Under the pieces are notes generated by a model. That model worked only from the letters and a program-made list of their open reading frames with translations, was not told the DNA's origin and did no database searches. From a virus (taxonomy: Duplodnaviria; Caudoviricetes): 30,091 bases of DNA. Both the position numbers and the translations under genes were made by a program. Every line of letters starts with the position of its first letter. Position 1 is the first letter of the stretch. Shown one piece after another: positions 9,897 to 19,923 of this stretch. The DNA lies in the IMG/VR virus record IMGVR_UViG_3300012664_000223, positions 1 through 30,091 of that record, one strand, 5' to 3'.

Positions 9897-10444
9897 AGTT
9901 TTTTTCTTTTAGCTCTACGTTTTTTTATTGGTGTATTAGTTACCTCTGTAATTGGATTGGGAGTAAGGTCTACCTGTGTTAATTCAATAAGCGCTTCAGC
10001 TTGTTCTACTTTAGCCAAGTCTCCTTCTAATTGCTTCTCTAACTTATTTAGTAACTCATTCATACAGGGAGTGCAAGATGTAAAGCTCTTGCCGTCTCTA
10101 ATGCCAAGATATTCTCTTCTAAGTTTAAACAGCTTAGCCATCTCACCAGGTGCTAATCTTCCGCGCTTTCTGATTTCTCTGATGTGTTCAAGTGTTGGCA
10201 TCTTCCAATCCTTCTCCTCCAAGATGGGCCATAGTTTAGCTGGGCAGTCAGTAGCTGCATAACTTGCCAAGTGATCCACAGGGCAGCCACAAGGCTTAAA
10301 GGTTACCTCTCCAATAGTGTGAGGCTTCTTGAATGGATTAATTGCATTTACAGGAGGCCCACAAGTACCAAACTGCTTGTTATAGACAGGGCACTCTTTG
10401 CATACCTTAACTCTCGCTTCGAAGTCTGTGCTATTTATCATCAT
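9893..10444 (-). CDS. Cys-rich, putative zinc-binding protein
   Basis: R-x3-C-x2-CP, TCG, CGC, CP-x3-W and SC-x2-C motifs; basic C-terminus. Confidence 0.7.
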   Translation of the reverse strand: MMINSTDFEARVKVCKECPVYNKQFGTCGPPVNAINPFKKPHTIGEVTFKPCGCPVDHLASYAATDCPAKLWPILEEKDWKMPTLEHIREIRKRGRLAPGEMAKLFKLRREYLGIRDGKSFTSCTPCMNELLNKLEKQLEGDLAKVEQAEALIELTQVDLTPNPITEVTNTPIKKRRAKRKKL

Positions 10445-10941
10445 ATCTGTAGTGAATTACGTAGTGTTGTTTTCGCTTTCTTAATAGTTCTGTAAAGATA
10501 GTTCAAAGGTATACCAGTCTCTTTAGCTAACTCCTGATAGCTGAAGTCATCCAATGCGTATAAGAAGAATAGCTCACGCTCAAAGTAGGGAAGTCTGCTG
10601 ATGAAGATATCTAACTGCTCATTCTCAAGTCTCATTCCTACACTCTTGTTAACATCATCTATAATATCATCTTTCAAATCATTGCGTATCTTTTCAAATC
10701 TTAACCTGGTATAGTTGAATGAGCTATTGCTACAGCGTGCAGATAAGCGAATGGCATTACTCACGTAGTTATTAAGCTTACCTCTATCATGGATATCTTG
10801 TAACTTATCTTTGTCTGATTCCAATATCTTAAGCAGCGTATCGTGCAGAAGCTCATCGGCTAAATCTTGGCGAGTAACAGTTGCTGCTACTCTGCGCCAT
10901 TCGTTATAGCACTTATTTATTTCTGAGTGATAGGTACTCAT
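10441..10941 (-). CDS. ECF-type (sigma-70 family) RNA polymerase sigma factor
   Basis: Region 2-like ADELLHDTLLKI and region 4 HTH LPYFERELFFLY...SYQELAKETGIPLNYLYRTIKKAK. Confidence 0.85.
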   Translation of the reverse strand: MSTYHSEINKCYNEWRRVAATVTRQDLADELLHDTLLKILESDKDKLQDIHDRGKLNNYVSNAIRLSARCSNSSFNYTRLRFEKIRNDLKDDIIDDVNKSVGMRLENEQLDIFISRLPYFERELFFLYALDDFSYQELAKETGIPLNYLYRTIKKAKTTLRNSLQI

Positions 10942-11266
10942 CTATAACTTGTTTGGCTTCATCAAAGCTCTTGCATGTAACTGCATGATAGCCGTTGTTA
11001 ATAAGCTTTGCTTGCCAATCTTTTTGGCTCTGACTCATTACACCCTTAGCTGTTTTCATCTCTATAGCTAAGCCAAAGAATGGGCCCTTAGCGTTGTAGA
11101 TAAATATGTCAGGGAAGCCTTTAACATACCCTGTTTTCTTCATCTTAACTGCCTGCTTCATGGAAGTTCTAACACCACCAGCAGAGGCACAATAAAGAAG
11201 TCTCGGATACTGAGCGTTAATATAGTTAATAACAGCCTCTTGTATTAAGGCTTCCTCGTTCTTCAT
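10913..11266 (-). CDS. VRR-NUC domain nuclease (putative Holliday junction resolvase)
   Basis: E-x3-Q, GFPDI, IEMK and SQSQKDWQ PD-(D/E)xK motifs. Confidence 0.88.
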   Translation of the reverse strand: MKNEEALIQEAVINYINAQYPRLLYCASAGGVRTSMKQAVKMKKTGYVKGFPDIFIYNAKGPFFGLAIEMKTAKGVMSQSQKDWQAKLINNGYHAVTCKSFDEAKQVIDEYLSLRNK

Positions 11267-11270
11267 GATT

Positions 11271-11302
11271 CAAAATTAGTCTATTAACTTAATCTAAATC
11301 AA
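11271..11302 (-). promoter_or_regulatory. Bacteroidota sigma-A promoter for the VRR-NUC/sigma operon
   Basis: TTG-N21-TAATTTTG; the -7 element ends 4 nt before the ATG at 11266, implying a (near-)leaderless mRNA. Confidence 0.7.
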
Positions 11303-11342
11303 CATCTTGTTAACATACTTATTCACATAGCATTTAGCGCTA

Positions 11343-11350
11343 TATCTTTG
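11343..11350 (+). promoter_or_regulatory. Divergent plus-strand -7 element TATCTTTG
   Basis: Matches TAnnTTTG and lies about 50 nt upstream of a plus-oriented terminator. Confidence 0.6.
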
Positions 11351-11354
11351 GCTC

Positions 11355-11431
11355 ATTAATTTGCTTTTGGTTTAGCACATTGATTATTGATTTTCTATTA
11401 GAGCTTCACAACGGTGAGGCTCTTTTAGTTT
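11355..11431 (+). ncRNA. Putative ~75-nt antisense small RNA
   Basis: Bounded by a promoter element and an intrinsic terminator, with no ORF; its U-rich body is complementary to early-gene start regions; the 5' end is approximate. Confidence 0.6.
11400..11431 (+). terminator. Intrinsic terminator
   Basis: AGAGCTTCAC-AACG-GTGAGGCTCT (10-bp stem, one G-U) followed by TTTAGTTT. Confidence 0.75.
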
Positions 11432-11636
11432 ATACCCTGTAGGGATAGAAAACATAGGGAGTACTCCCTAATTGCCCTTAATTGCCCCTTTAGGGTATAG
11501 TTTTTATAAAAATTCATGCAAGTAATTCGGCTGTGCTTCGAATTGATGTAGATTATTTTACACAAAATGCACATTAAAGTGTGCAATATCCCTCATAAAG
11601 GACATTTTAGTAGAATAAAGTGTGTTTTACAACACA
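11431..11636. repeat. Cluster of about 9 distinct short inverted repeats
   Basis: For example TAGGGAGTACTCCCTA (11455-70), AATTCG-N9-CGAATT (11524-44), TGCACA-N6-TGTGCA (11568-85), TGTGTT-N4-AACACA (11621-36). Confidence 0.75.
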
Positions 11637-11640
11637 TTAC

Positions 11641-12960
11641 TCAAATGAATGCGTATTTAGTATAGTTGCGATTCAGCTCAAAGAATGCTCTCATCATGAT
11701 AGCATCTGCTATATCGGGAGAGATTCCACCGGTGCGCTGGCTTATGGTATCCTTAGATGTAACGCGAAGCTTTCCCTCTTTATCAGGATCTACTCGTCGA
11801 ATCAATTCTAATTCTTTAACTATGTCCTCCTGCCATTTAATAGGCAGCGTTATCTCATTCTTATCTATCAACTCGCCTAACCTAAAGTAGCAGTCTGCTT
11901 TTAAGTTCATGTATTGAGTGCCTCTCACTGCTTTACTACCATTCATAAATTCCCTGCAGCGAAGGCTATCTACAAGACCTCCCCCCACCCCATCAGCATC
12001 TGCAAGCACGTTGCTTAGCCTAACTTGATATTGATTCATTAACCGCTGTATTTCTGCCTTAACTTCATCTTGGCGCTTTTGTCTTAGGACCACAATATCA
12101 ATACAGCTCAATCCCTTCCACACACAAAGCACTGTTCTATCTTTACCAAGCCGAGCTATATCGGCAGTGATATATCCCTCACCTACGTTCATTGGCTCAC
12201 GAAAGCAGCGCATAAGCTCATCATAAAGATAAAGTCTATCTGAGCTGTTATCAAATTCCCAGTCTCCCTCAAGCAAGCGCTTCCTATCTGCTTCGGGTAA
12301 ACGTGTTAAGCTTGTTACATAAGCATCGGGCAAGTGTATATTATCACCTGGTAGCGCTTGAATAAAAGCAAGGTGATTAGGTAAGTTTTGATTTTTATAA
12401 GGCAGATAGAACTGATTATAAATCCATCCCTTAGATGGATTACATGTGAGTAATATTTTAGGCTTAAGCCCAAAGTCATTTAACTTATAACGAATACGTG
12501 AGCAAACTACGCTATAGGCTTTCTCGCTAATCTCGGTAGCCTCGTCTAAAAATACATCTGTGAGCTCGAGGCCGCCTAAATCCTGGTAATGTGGATCTGA
12601 GGGGTAAAATTGCAAGTCGGCTAATATAATCTCTGAGCCGTTACTAAACTTAATTATGTGAGATTGCTGATTGTAAATGAAATCTTCGCCTGCTTTTAAG
12701 CCTACATCATTTGCTACCTGAAAAAATGTATTCATGGTAGTCTTTTTAAGCGTGTCTAACTTAGCTCTGCCAATAAGTGAACGTGTGCCTGGGTATTTTA
12801 AGCGCCTAAGAATCTGCCACATGCAGCCGAGCATAGTCTTTCCGCCACCTGCAGCTCCTCCGTAGAGAATTGTTTCAACGTCTGAATCTACTGATAAGAA
12901 TTTAAGTGCCTCGCTTTGTCTTGTAAGAGGCTTGAAATTGTATTCTATTTGTCCCGCCAT
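11641..12960 (-). CDS. terL: Terminase large subunit
   Basis: Walker A GGAAGGGKT, Walker B VFLDE, coupling motif TCNP, RNase H-like nuclease motifs DIARLGKD, DADGVG and SPDIADA. Confidence 0.95.
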   Translation of the reverse strand: MAGQIEYNFKPLTRQSEALKFLSVDSDVETILYGGAAGGGKTMLGCMWQILRRLKYPGTRSLIGRAKLDTLKKTTMNTFFQVANDVGLKAGEDFIYNQQSHIIKFSNGSEIILADLQFYPSDPHYQDLGGLELTDVFLDEATEISEKAYSVVCSRIRYKLNDFGLKPKILLTCNPSKGWIYNQFYLPYKNQNLPNHLAFIQALPGDNIHLPDAYVTSLTRLPEADRKRLLEGDWEFDNSSDRLYLYDELMRCFREPMNVGEGYITADIARLGKDRTVLCVWKGLSCIDIVVLRQKRQDEVKAEIQRLMNQYQVRLSNVLADADGVGGGLVDSLRCREFMNGSKAVRGTQYMNLKADCYFRLGELIDKNEITLPIKWQEDIVKELELIRRVDPDKEGKLRVTSKDTISQRTGGISPDIADAIMMRAFFELNRNYTKYAFI

Positions 12961-16339: not shown

Positions 16340-16604
16340 CTTGTATTGTTTTAGTTTGGTTAATCTCACGTGCTCTCCACTGATCTGCAGCTGCTCGCCA
16401 GCTCTTCATACTGTTCTTACCTACTTTCCACCCATTGCTTTCATAGTGGCAATAGAATTTCTTAGCTAAGACTAAATCTTCTAAGTAGGTTACTACATCT
16501 GAGAGTGATGGGGGTGTGAATTTGGTAGAGGTAGAGCGCTTAGATTCAAGCGCTTTTACCCTCTCTTCAAGCGCCTCTATGCGCTTTAATAAGATTGTCA
16601 TCAT
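16281..16604 (-). CDS. Stand-alone replication-initiator C-terminal-like domain with coiled coil
   Basis: F-x-PP-x3-DV-x2-Y...KF-x3-YESNGWKVGKNSMKSWRAA-x3-W motif, recalled from the C-termini of phage replication proteins. Confidence 0.7.
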   Translation of the reverse strand: MMTILLKRIEALEERVKALESKRSTSTKFTPPSLSDVVTYLEDLVLAKKFYCHYESNGWKVGKNSMKSWRAAADQWRAREINQTKTIQDEQRIGRISTAELQSFTKR

Positions 16605-16616
16605 TTGGTTTATTGA

Positions 16617-17066
16617 TTAGTGATTGGCCAAATATAGTAAAATTCTTTTCCACCAAGGCAGTGCTACAGCTTTTTTTACTCTTGGCTTATAGCTACGCTT
16701 AGATTCAATCTTAGGCATATTGACTAATCCAAGCATGTCAGTATCAGCTTTAGGTAACTGGTTGTAACCGGTTACTTCATTTCTTCTGCTATAAAATTTC
16801 TGCAGGTGTTTAGTCTGAATATCTTTTACTCTATAAAAATCTTTACGCTCTAAAACAGGCTTAATAACTTCTACTTTATGGCCATTTATCCTTACTAAAA
16901 TTCGAGCCTTGACTAAATATTGTATGTAAGATCCTGATAGCCCTACTTGCCTTAAAGATTTAGTTGCGTTATTTGTCTTAGCAATTAAATCTATACCAGC
17001 TTGTAATCTTTCTAATGTCAAAGGCTGCTTTGTTTTTTTCTCGAATTGCATTGTGGTTTGTTTCAT
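16617..17066 (-). CDS. Hypothetical basic protein
   Basis: 149-aa ORF ending PWWKRIL. Confidence 0.7.
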   Translation of the reverse strand: MKQTTMQFEKKTKQPLTLERLQAGIDLIAKTNNATKSLRQVGLSGSYIQYLVKARILVRINGHKVEVIKPVLERKDFYRVKDIQTKHLQKFYSRRNEVTGYNQLPKADTDMLGLVNMPKIESKRSYKPRVKKAVALPWWKRILLYLANH

Positions 17067-17087
17067 GATTATTTGATTTGTGATTAT

Positions 17088-17283: not shown

Positions 17284-17772
17284 TTATTGAGTTAATTTAT
17301 TATACACTCTCTGCAAATTAGCATCTTGTAGCTTATCTAAAATAGACTGTACACATGCCCGATATAATGGATCAGTCTGCAGCATTGCCTCTACGTGATT
17401 AATAGCGTGCAGGATAGTAGCGTGATGCCTTACAAATATTAGCCCTACATTTTGAAAGCTCATGCTGGTCCCGTTGCGAACTACCCACATACATATCTGC
17501 CTGATATCATTCACCTCTCTATGCCTGCTCCTGCCTTTAAGCTGTTCCCAAGTGCAGTAGCCATGCTCAAATATAATCTGTAACATCTCCTTAGCCTTGG
17601 CTTCATTAAGTGATTCTGCTATACCGTTAATTGATTTCCACTTAAGCTCCGGTATATCACTCTCATTTACAGCTCGCACTAAGTTATCTAATCTTTGACG
17701 TGCGAACTGCTGCCCATCTGCAGGTATTAGCAGCAATATATCTGCTATCTTTCTATCTATTACTTTACTCAT
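17284..17772 (-). CDS. DnaA C-terminal (domain IV) HTH-containing protein
   Basis: LKGRSRHREVNDIRQICMW...SFQNVGLIFVRHHATILHAI matches the DnaA domain IV signature; no AAA+ domain. Confidence 0.85.
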   Translation of the reverse strand: MSKVIDRKIADILLLIPADGQQFARQRLDNLVRAVNESDIPELKWKSINGIAESLNEAKAKEMLQIIFEHGYCTWEQLKGRSRHREVNDIRQICMWVVRNGTSMSFQNVGLIFVRHHATILHAINHVEAMLQTDPLYRACVQSILDKLQDANLQRVYNKLTQ

Positions 17773-18754: not shown

Positions 18755-18977
18755 AGCGGTCAGACATAAAATAGTCATGCACATTATTCTCATCTTCGCT
18801 CTCAAACTGGTATAAGAATGTCCCATCTTCAGGGAATACCTCACCATGCTTCTTGGCAATTGAGAAATCATTTAAAGAATAGGAGTGTGCTGATGTGTAC
18901 AGTCTCCATGTGCAAGCCTCGGCATCCCACCGACTTACAATAACCCTACCGGTTAGATTGTTGTTTGGTTTATTCAT
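18744..18977 (-). CDS. Hypothetical early protein
   Basis: 77-aa ORF with A-rich leader. Confidence 0.7.
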   Translation of the reverse strand: MNKPNNNLTGRVIVSRWDAEACTWRLYTSAHSYSLNDFSIAKKHGEVFPEDGTFLYQFESEDENNVHDYFMSDRYVI

Positions 18978-18998
18978 GATATTGATTATTTTGCTAAT

Positions 18999-19229
18999 TT
19001 AAGAAAGTTTTTCTATTTCGATTAAGAATCCTTCACCTTCAATAGAATATTCTGTGAACTCTTCCTGGAAGGGCAGAGTCTCTTTGAAGTTGTAAAGGTC
19101 GAATAGCATTAGTGCCATCTGCTGAGCTATTTCAAAAGTCTCAGCTTCGAAGCGTGTAGGAATCTTTAAGCGGCTGTATAAGCTAATTGTATCCTCGCGT
19201 AGTGGAGTTACTTTAAGTACGAAGCTCAT
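18999..19229 (-). CDS. Hypothetical early protein
   Basis: 76-aa ORF with ATGA coupling. Confidence 0.7.
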   Translation of the reverse strand: MSFVLKVTPLREDTISLYSRLKIPTRFEAETFEIAQQMALMLFDLYNFKETLPFQEEFTEYSIEGEGFLIEIEKLS

Positions 19230-19408: not shown

Positions 19409-19713
19409 TTATTTAAGGTATTTGGGGTTGGTAATTCTTTCCATGATGTTTTTTCAAGATCGTTTATTACTTCTTGAATTTCTTGCAATCTTAAATCGCA
19501 GCCTTCATCCCATTCTGCATTGCCACATTTCATATCTTCCCAATGACATTTAGCCAGTTTAAGTGCTGAATTAATAGTCCTTACTTGCTCTTTAAAGAGA
19601 AGAGGAATTTTGCATATTGCTATTTCTTCGCTCATATTATTTTGATTTACGTTTAAAAAATTATCGTTAATGTTTGCAAGGTCATTGCAAAACTCATCTA
19701 TCCATTGACTCAT
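19405..19713 (-). CDS. Hypothetical early protein
   Basis: 102-aa ORF; alternative internal start MSEEIA. Confidence 0.65.
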   Translation of the reverse strand: MSQWIDEFCNDLANINDNFLNVNQNNMSEEIAICKIPLLFKEQVRTINSALKLAKCHWEDMKCGNAEWDEGCDLRLQEIQEVINDLEKTSWKELPTPNTLNK

Positions 19714-19823
19714 TTGCTGATGTGATTAGGTTGTGATTCTAATTTAGCTGTGTCTGCATCGAATGATCCTCCGATGAGTAGGCCTGCTATTAGCATGGCG
19801 AGAAAGAGTAGTGCTTTTTTCAT
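19710..19823 (-). CDS. Small hydrophobic peptide (37 aa), first gene of the early operon
   Basis: MKKALLFLAMLIAGLLIGGSFDADTAKLESQPNHISK; about 20 nt after the promoter; ATGA coupling to the next gene. Confidence 0.75.
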   Translation of the reverse strand: MKKALLFLAMLIAGLLIGGSFDADTAKLESQPNHISK

Positions 19824-19845
19824 TTGCTTATTGATTTAATTTTAG

Positions 19846-19896: not shown

Positions 19897-19904
19897 CAAA
19901 GTTA
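19897..19904 (-). promoter_or_regulatory. Second tandem -7 element TAACTTTG
   Basis: Matches TAnnTTTG; both tandem elements are followed by CTA. Confidence 0.55.
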
Positions 19905-19923
19905 TTAACAAAGATTTGTTAGC

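Follow-up and report, generated by a model that had tools for sequence, protein, structure and literature searches.

The 30,091-base virus record analysed here (hereafter the window) probably carries a phage small-RNA gene, the predicted transcript of which, about 75 nt long, would bind the starts of at least three early mRNAs and block their translation, most plausibly as a delayed brake between early and late expression. All 49 annotated ORFs lie on the minus strand, in gene blocks that include portal, capsid and tape measure genes and an early block running from 19823 to 13823. The proposed RNA gene is on the opposite strand, between terL (11641-12960, minus) and a VRR-NUC gene (10913-11266, minus), which starts 77 nt before the -7 box of the RNA and is oriented away from it. 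Beside VRR-NUC lies a gene for an ECF-type sigma factor (10441-10941, minus; PF08281, with TIGR02937 above cut-off), which we infer to be the late activator, and the early block encodes a stand-alone DnaA domain IV (17284-17772, minus; PF08299, with matches to DnaA in the PDB). The closest terL sequences from cultured phages are those of Flavobacterium phage 11b (46%) and Cellulophaga phi10:1 (42%), and these matches, together with the TAnnTTTG boxes described below, point to a host within the Bacteroidota. Eighty relatives share terL at 92-97% identity, while among the matches listed by the homolog search all were 94% or closer; relatives at 60%-85% terL identity fall outside this sample, and a sister clade is found at 59%. 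In L219 (8236-9660) the terL alignment spans 475 positions, about 36 codons more than the window terL, possibly reflecting an insertion.

The conserved unit between terL and VRR-NUC

An initial sequence-only reading had described a promoter element, a U-rich body and a terminator on an otherwise gene-free strand, and each of these elements was recovered. The unit begins with a sigmaA -7 box of the type TAnnTTTG (TATCTTTG, 11343-11350, plus), the six consensus positions of which are invariant and the two n positions variable across 51 aligned units. Since the -7 box of Flavobacterium promoters is described as lying at -12 to -5 (PMC9723704), the RNA is predicted to start at about 11355 and to extend to 11431. 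The box is followed by the UUUGGUUU loop, a UGAUUA box and the terminator. Stem 1 (11362-11377) displays an 8-nt loop (11366-11373) that holds the first putative seed, UGGUUU (11368-11373); the second seed, UGAUUA followed by UUGAUU or UUUGAUU, occupies invariant columns at 11381-11392; and the intrinsic terminator (11400-11431, with the hairpin at 11400-11423) consists of a 10-bp stem, an AACG loop and a U tail. The unit was found in 75 of 82 terL–VRR-NUC spacers, and the seven spacers lacking it comprise six contig ends and one sequence with a TAnnTTTA box.

Units were extracted by the patterns TAnnTT(T/A)G and TnTGGTTT, so that the invariance of the box and of the loop core is partly built in. 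UGGUUU and UGAUUA are invariant in the aligned units while the spacers vary. The loop of stem 1 is the same in 49 of 50 distinct variants, with the inner two pairs of the stem present in all 50 and the third in 48, and the pair swaps seen there (U-A/C-G and C-G/G-C) are compensatory. Pairing in the terminator is complete, with 500 of 500 cells paired across the 50 variants (450 Watson-Crick, 50 G-U and no A-C) and compensatory swaps at most positions. The plus strand folds better than the minus strand in 50/50 variants (in the window, -23.3 versus -15.4 kcal/mol), and it is taken as the RNA strand because of the G-U pairs and the T tail. A frame of 20 codons does start within the window unit on the minus strand; as a minus-strand peptide it was rejected, given that 12 of the 50 variants have no minus-strand ATG and no start codon on that strand is conserved among them. 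At the level of sequence the unit thus has its own promoter and intrinsic terminator and no conserved ORF, and we consider it very likely to be a real, conserved RNA gene.

Two observations concern the surroundings of the unit. From the terminator to the terL stop (11431-11640), relatives hold short self-complementary cassettes, 0 to about 340 bases in total, that change order among relatives and contain no conserved ORF. A second stretch running from a -7 box to a terminator is present at 9668-9575 (minus) in the window; it is U-poor and overlaps a 33-codon ORF present in 5 of 17 genomes.

Predicted pairing with early gene starts

The sequence-only reading had proposed that segments of the RNA body are antisense to several early gene starts, and the matches it listed all exist: ATTTGCTT at 19822, TTATTGATTT at 19828, TTTGGTTTA at 18964 and 16604, ATTGATTATT at 18981, ATTGATTA at 16612, TGATTATT at 17066 and 17081, and ATTTGCT at 19712. 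Chance has to be reckoned with for the shorter ones, since ATTTGCT occurs nine times and ATTTGCTT four times on the plus strand of the window, and the ATTTGCT(T) segment, on which the matches at 19822 and 19712 draw, belongs to a variable 5' part of the RNA and is found in 19 of 50 variants. Within the window alone, the duplex energies against 49-50 start regions gave a top-8 mean equalled by 10 of 300 dinucleotide shuffles, and the difference between early and late starts was equalled by 59/300. When accessibility was included, the top-4 mean was equalled by 9 and the early-minus-late difference by 14 of 44 shuffles, and perfect matches of at least 10 nt were equalled by 46/200. Aggregate pairing in this single genome is therefore marginal, and the enrichment of early over late starts expected by the sequence-only reading is not significant there. 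The strongest single match in the window, at gene 20780 in the lysis region, was discarded as a target because it ranks in the top 5 in only 2 of 17 genomes.

The matches become clearly non-random only once the genomes of relatives are added. In 17 complete genomes, each scored with its own RNA against 39 families of start regions, three families stood out: g18977 (median rank 1; top 5 in 17/17 genomes), g17066 (median rank 2; 15/15) and g16604 (median rank 3; 17/17), with mean net duplex energies of -14 to -17 kcal/mol as against -8.8 for the next family. When the window RNA was tested against clade-averaged starts of the 39 families, z reached -6.4 for g17066, -5.5 for g16604 and -4.8 for g18977, followed by -2.1, and the values of these three families were reached by none of 66 shuffles. 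The concern that the matches are no better than those of any U-rich sequence thus holds some force for the window by itself, where the result is marginal, but not across the 17 genomes. The ssb-like gene (18474) was left out of the family tests.

Support independent of energy calculations comes from a count blind to the RNA. AAACCA and TAATCA, each complementary to one of the two invariant boxes, are the one pair of 6-mers that reaches conservation in three families at a 60% cut, both among 304,480 composition-matched pairs and among 7.37 million pairs; the cut was picked after seeing a value of 0.65 for g16604. At 50%, five pairs qualify, four of which are built from AAACCA, AATCAA, TAATCA or CAATAA words in the target families; at 70% the pair is conserved in two families, as are 21 pairs in all, and at 80% in one. 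Starts holding both words number 38 of 279 in the early class, 0 of 139 in the middle class and 3 of 449 in the late class; among starts from other Bacteroidota phages the count is 1 of 1,077. Their order and spacing in the targets fit an antiparallel duplex.

The individual sites (all on the minus strand) differ in layout. At g18977 (18964-18990) seed 2 would pair upstream of the ATG and seed 1 within codons 3-5, and the AAA CCA codons (3-4) show no synonymous change in 34/34 sequences, compared with 32/146 fixed Lys columns and 11/73 fixed Pro columns in core genes. The site of g17066 lies at 17054-17079, while the leader site of g16604 (16602-16624, about 20 nt) stands behind its own -7 box (16629-16636); two of the firm targets are placed directly behind TAnnTTTG-like boxes. 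The first early gene, g19823, is a weaker candidate (19822-19841), with a seed-2-type word in 17/17 genomes and a median energy rank of 15 among the families. As for the products, g16604 resembles the C-terminal domain of replication initiators, longer homologs of which carry PF09681, PF14297 or PF13730; domain scans found no family for g18977 or g17066, and the ESM Atlas none for g16604 or g18977. Of the multi-target proposal, then, the sites at 18977, 17066 and 16604 are firm and 19823 is weaker, whereas 19712, which relies on the variable part of the RNA, finds no support. The seeds are conserved and accessible, and several unlinked mRNAs of the same phage hold conserved sites complementary to them, which makes it likely, judged from the sequences, that the RNA pairs with these three early starts. 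The early gene starting at 19229 has in most relatives a Shine-Dalgarno-like word, AAGGAGG, upstream of it and within the last codons of the preceding gene, which is unusual for the Bacteroidota.

Variation within the clade bears on the same sites. An insertion of one base in seed 2 has its counterpart in the leader of g17066 (10/11 versus 1/24; phi 0.87, counted without L046 and L059, which have mis-assigned starts), and linkage as tight is seen at 1 of 1,988 background sites. The insertion is likewise mirrored in the leader of g19823 (4/8 versus 0/24). This covariation should be read with the long form being largely one lineage, with 3-5 changes on the trees. The window itself is mismatched, combining an RNA of the short form with a g17066 leader of the long form, and is apparently a recombinant of the two.

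The sister clade was at first read as having no such RNA; this was overturned by weak matches to the covariance model at 33.8 and 30.1 bits (rough E-values 0.008 and 0.04). The units found there have the same terminator loop and no canonical -7 box, and are located at the end of the VRR-NUC/sigma operon, on the strand of the operon. In perfect pairing, their body covers 14-16 bases of one early leader of their own genome and 12 bases of their own first early leader. Against their own starts these units beat 299-300 of 300 shuffles, and against the starts of the window phage they show no match (127 and 245 of 300 shuffles reach the score). Given the weak homology match, this switch would count as a second event, beside the seed-2 insertion, in which seed and target change together.

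Promoter context and the proposed early-to-late brake

Two tandem 9-mers at 11307-11327 (plus) precede the -7 box of the RNA by 14-15 nt in 75/75 units; by the TTATNCACA consensus they resemble DnaA boxes. They lie between this -7 box and a divergent one (11271-11278, minus) directly before VRR-NUC, from which a near-leaderless VRR-NUC and sigma transcript is predicted, and the position of the divergent box relative to the RNA promoter is constant within 1 nt in 75/75. In the sister clade the same pair, with the same spacing, precedes the VRR-NUC/sigma promoter. Taken singly, DnaA-like boxes show no enrichment in the window (9 versus 5.9 expected). Given the location of the pair between both promoters, and an RNA-like unit at the end of the same-promoter operon in the sister clade, we infer that the RNA and the sigma factor may be switched on together. 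The DnaA domain IV homolog encoded in the early block of both clades is a candidate binder of the boxes. Its helix motif reads RHHAT in 14 of 17 genomes, RHHST in one and RDHST in two, compared with RDHTT in the PDB match, and it differs from DnaA at base-contacting positions, which weakens the case for its binding to the boxes. Whether the pair is bound by this phage protein or by host DnaA, activating the RNA along with the VRR-NUC/sigma transcript, we regard as evenly balanced between true and false. A literature search, in the part of the literature it reached, returned nothing on DnaA-box promoters of such a kind in phages.

Three further sequence features were seen in this context. A third DnaA-box-like 9-mer at 19902-19910 in the window, present in 14/17 genomes, overlaps an upstream early -7 box and could be a repression site of the early promoter. 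In the sister genomes (G001/G002) the block from the early genes to terL is inverted relative to the window, so that, where the window has its RNA gene, the sister clade has its early promoter pointing away from the box-pair promoter. The word TTTCCACTA occurs on the minus strand at 26889-26881 and 7133-7125, just before the late genes 26867 and 7119, and at 27632-27624, early in gene 27641; it recurs in the three relatives inspected, is also present on the plus strand in the variable cassettes, and may be a promoter at which the phage sigma factor acts.

In the mechanism we propose, the loop with seed 1 would nucleate pairing with an early mRNA, and seed 2 would then zip over the A-rich leader or the AUG. 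The resulting duplex, at about -14 to -17 kcal/mol net, would mask upstream adenines, which ribosomes of the Bacteroidota use in place of a Shine-Dalgarno sequence (PMC6847099), so that early and replication genes would be damped while late genes turn on. That the RNA represses its early targets seems reasonably likely; that this shut-off is timed by the boxes is somewhat harder to maintain, falling just short of an even chance. What favours the early-to-late reading is the promoter context, the DnaA-box-like pair being found also before the sister clade's sigma-factor promoter.

A sustained rather than timed action, in which the RNA would hold early and replication genes down continuously and so keep a carrier or pseudolysogenic state or confer superinfection immunity in the manner of c4, is an unlikely alternative, yet one with several points to its credit. 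The sequence-only reading had remarked on the lack of an obvious CI or integrase, and this was borne out (no tyrosine integrase in 20 relatives, no HTH_3 repressor of the CI type in 18 records), which would leave the role of repressor free for the RNA; its promoter is of the host sigmaA type, one target is initiator-like, and seed and leader alleles are linked to lineage, as expected of immunity groups. Against this, the scan of the 49 ORFs matched no antirepressor, CI, integrase, partition or other maintenance gene, a search of 185,579 bacterial genomes (sensitive to close relatives only) found no close terL, and the position of the sister-clade RNA at the end of a sigma-factor operon points to expression in the lytic phase. 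Quite improbable is an action in cis, as described for lambda aQ at the late activator (PMC12197685), by which convergent transcription or antisense pairing would cut terL read-through into VRR-NUC and sigma, the shared words being relics of an inverted leader. The unit does lie precisely in the gap between terL and VRR-NUC/sigma, and on the other strand, but cis pairing requires no fixed sequence while both seeds are invariant among varying spacers; the RNA is directed away from VRR-NUC without overlapping it, distant leaders track the seed, and the sister unit lies on the operon's own strand.

Less credible still is the notion that the shared words are protein sites, either DNA operators located downstream of early promoters or sites of an RNA-binding protein, with the unit serving as a decoy. 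It would account for the two firm targets right behind TAnnTTTG-like boxes, and sRNAs of the Bacteroidota are known to bind RbpB sequence-specifically (PMC11697453). What the RNA holds, however, is complementary to the mRNA words and does not repeat them, seed 1 is exposed in a covarying loop, and word order and spacing fit an antiparallel duplex. To a similarly small degree we credit the possibility that the RNA pairs as predicted but mainly hits host mRNAs, or stabilises or activates its phage targets: leaders in the Bacteroidota are generally A-rich and phage sRNAs with host mRNA targets are known (PreS, DicF), but the two-word address is found in just one of the 1,077 starts from other Bacteroidota phages, and the predicted duplex spans leader and AUG, where pairing by FopS/GibS represses (PMC11697453). 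That a U-rich stretch before a terminator resembles common A-rich leaders by chance, or that the unit is the leader of a small ORF on the minus strand, seems to us the least probable account. Marginal single-genome shuffles and the 20-codon frame speak for it; the clade-wide shuffles (0/66), the 6-mer pair, the ranks of the targets and the sister-clade match speak against chance, and the 12/50 variants without a minus-strand ATG, together with the G-U pairs and T tail that fix the plus strand, against an ORF leader. The early-to-late brake stays our preferred reading.

Known regulators and similar units in other phages

The closest parallels are the host RNAs FopS and GibS of Bacteroides thetaiotaomicron (PMC11697453), in which a Bacteroidota sigmaA promoter (FopS) and single-stranded seeds followed by an intrinsic terminator resemble the predicted unit, as do the two seeds R1 and R2 of GibS. 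FopS and GibS repress by pairing with the initiation regions of the first genes of several operons, as we propose here; in contrast, they are host-encoded with targets in polysaccharide loci (PMC11697453), whereas the unit and its putative targets reside in one phage genome and the targets have an address in common. Their family is stated to be deposited in Rfam (PMC11697453). The unit matched no Rfam family above its gathering score or at E<=10, the best being PsrR1 with 21 bits against a cut-off of 42.

Among phage regulators, the c4 RNA of P1 and P7 is processed from its own target transcript. It is an antisense RNA with complementary segments that are likely to lie in loops and that block a ribosome-binding region, as proposed here, and its pairing is allele-specific (PMC12197685), as the pairing of the window-clade RNA may be. 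However, the target of c4 is an antirepressor mRNA within the immunity system of a temperate phage (PMC12197685), while here at least three unlinked early genes 5-8 kb away would be addressed, in a phage that has no integrase or CI that we could find and an RNA without an Rfam C4 match. The unit therefore belongs to neither the FopS/GibS nor the c4 family. Lambda aQ, lambda OOP and P22 sar are likewise small phage RNAs that run against the main direction of transcription and tune developmental timing, but each of them is encoded in cis and has full complementarity to a single target (PMC12197685), unlike the two short seeds acting in trans suggested here; the unit overlaps no conserved ORF, and cis-antisense overlap is thus absent. 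The phage sRNAs considered here from this review have a single phage mRNA or host genes as their targets, and its main text does not contain the words Bacteroid, Flavobacter or crAss (PMC12197685). Our literature search, which covered few subscription papers, returned no description of anti-leader RNAs in phages of the Bacteroidota.

An intergenic scan for a TAnnTTTG box, a body and a terminator detected U-rich units in 6 of 15 cultured Bacteroidota phages (phi10:1 being scanned over its first 50 kb only), with eight control 8-mers giving 0-1 each. The units are those of phage 11b (L468, 30326, plus), phi10:1 (L469, 20044, minus), phi19:1 (W01, 20985, minus), P12002L (W04, 14222, plus), phi18:1 (W07, 39116, plus) and P12024L (W12, 9826, plus). 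All six are unannotated, five hold an anti-start CAU, and the distance of 77 bases between the -7 box and the start of the divergent gene in the window is also seen in phi10:1 and phi19:1. Across seven independent phages the units scored better against their own than against foreign starts (mean z 1.05 versus 0.15; 11/5,040 permutations), with individual scores being modest and the window, at rank 11 of 17 for its own genome, not contributing. Since the covariance model of the window-clade unit gave no match in these phages, their units are to be regarded as analogues for which homology is not shown, and some may be ordinary 3' ends, as several follow a gene on the same strand. A looser pattern scan returned mostly chance matches. 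Among 132 further matches examined, the 52 with both promoter and terminator all belong to the window clade and none of the other 80 has both. The one pattern match in GTDB (L558) has neither promoter nor terminator and was taken as chance. For phi38:1, in which six ncRNAs have been reported (PMC5335546), the unit scan found none.

These similarities invite a broader and more tentative proposal, which we hold to be rather doubtful as yet: that Bacteroidota phages widely combine addressed early leaders with one anti-leader RNA, the two together replacing a protein repressor as a translational off switch for the whole class, with 11b, phi10:1, phi19:1, P12002L, phi18:1 and P12024L carrying unrecognised members. 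In the window clade the DnaA-box promoter, read by the phage's own DnaA domain IV or by host DnaA, would link the end of early expression to the sigma-driven onset of late expression. The presence of similar units in six cultured phages makes the idea directly testable, and the seeds could provide a design rule for synthetic knockdown in the Bacteroidota. If true, it would show phages of this phylum timing their gene expression without a recognisable repressor, with one short RNA addressing a phage's own set of early mRNAs through the A-rich leader that takes the place of the Shine-Dalgarno sequence.
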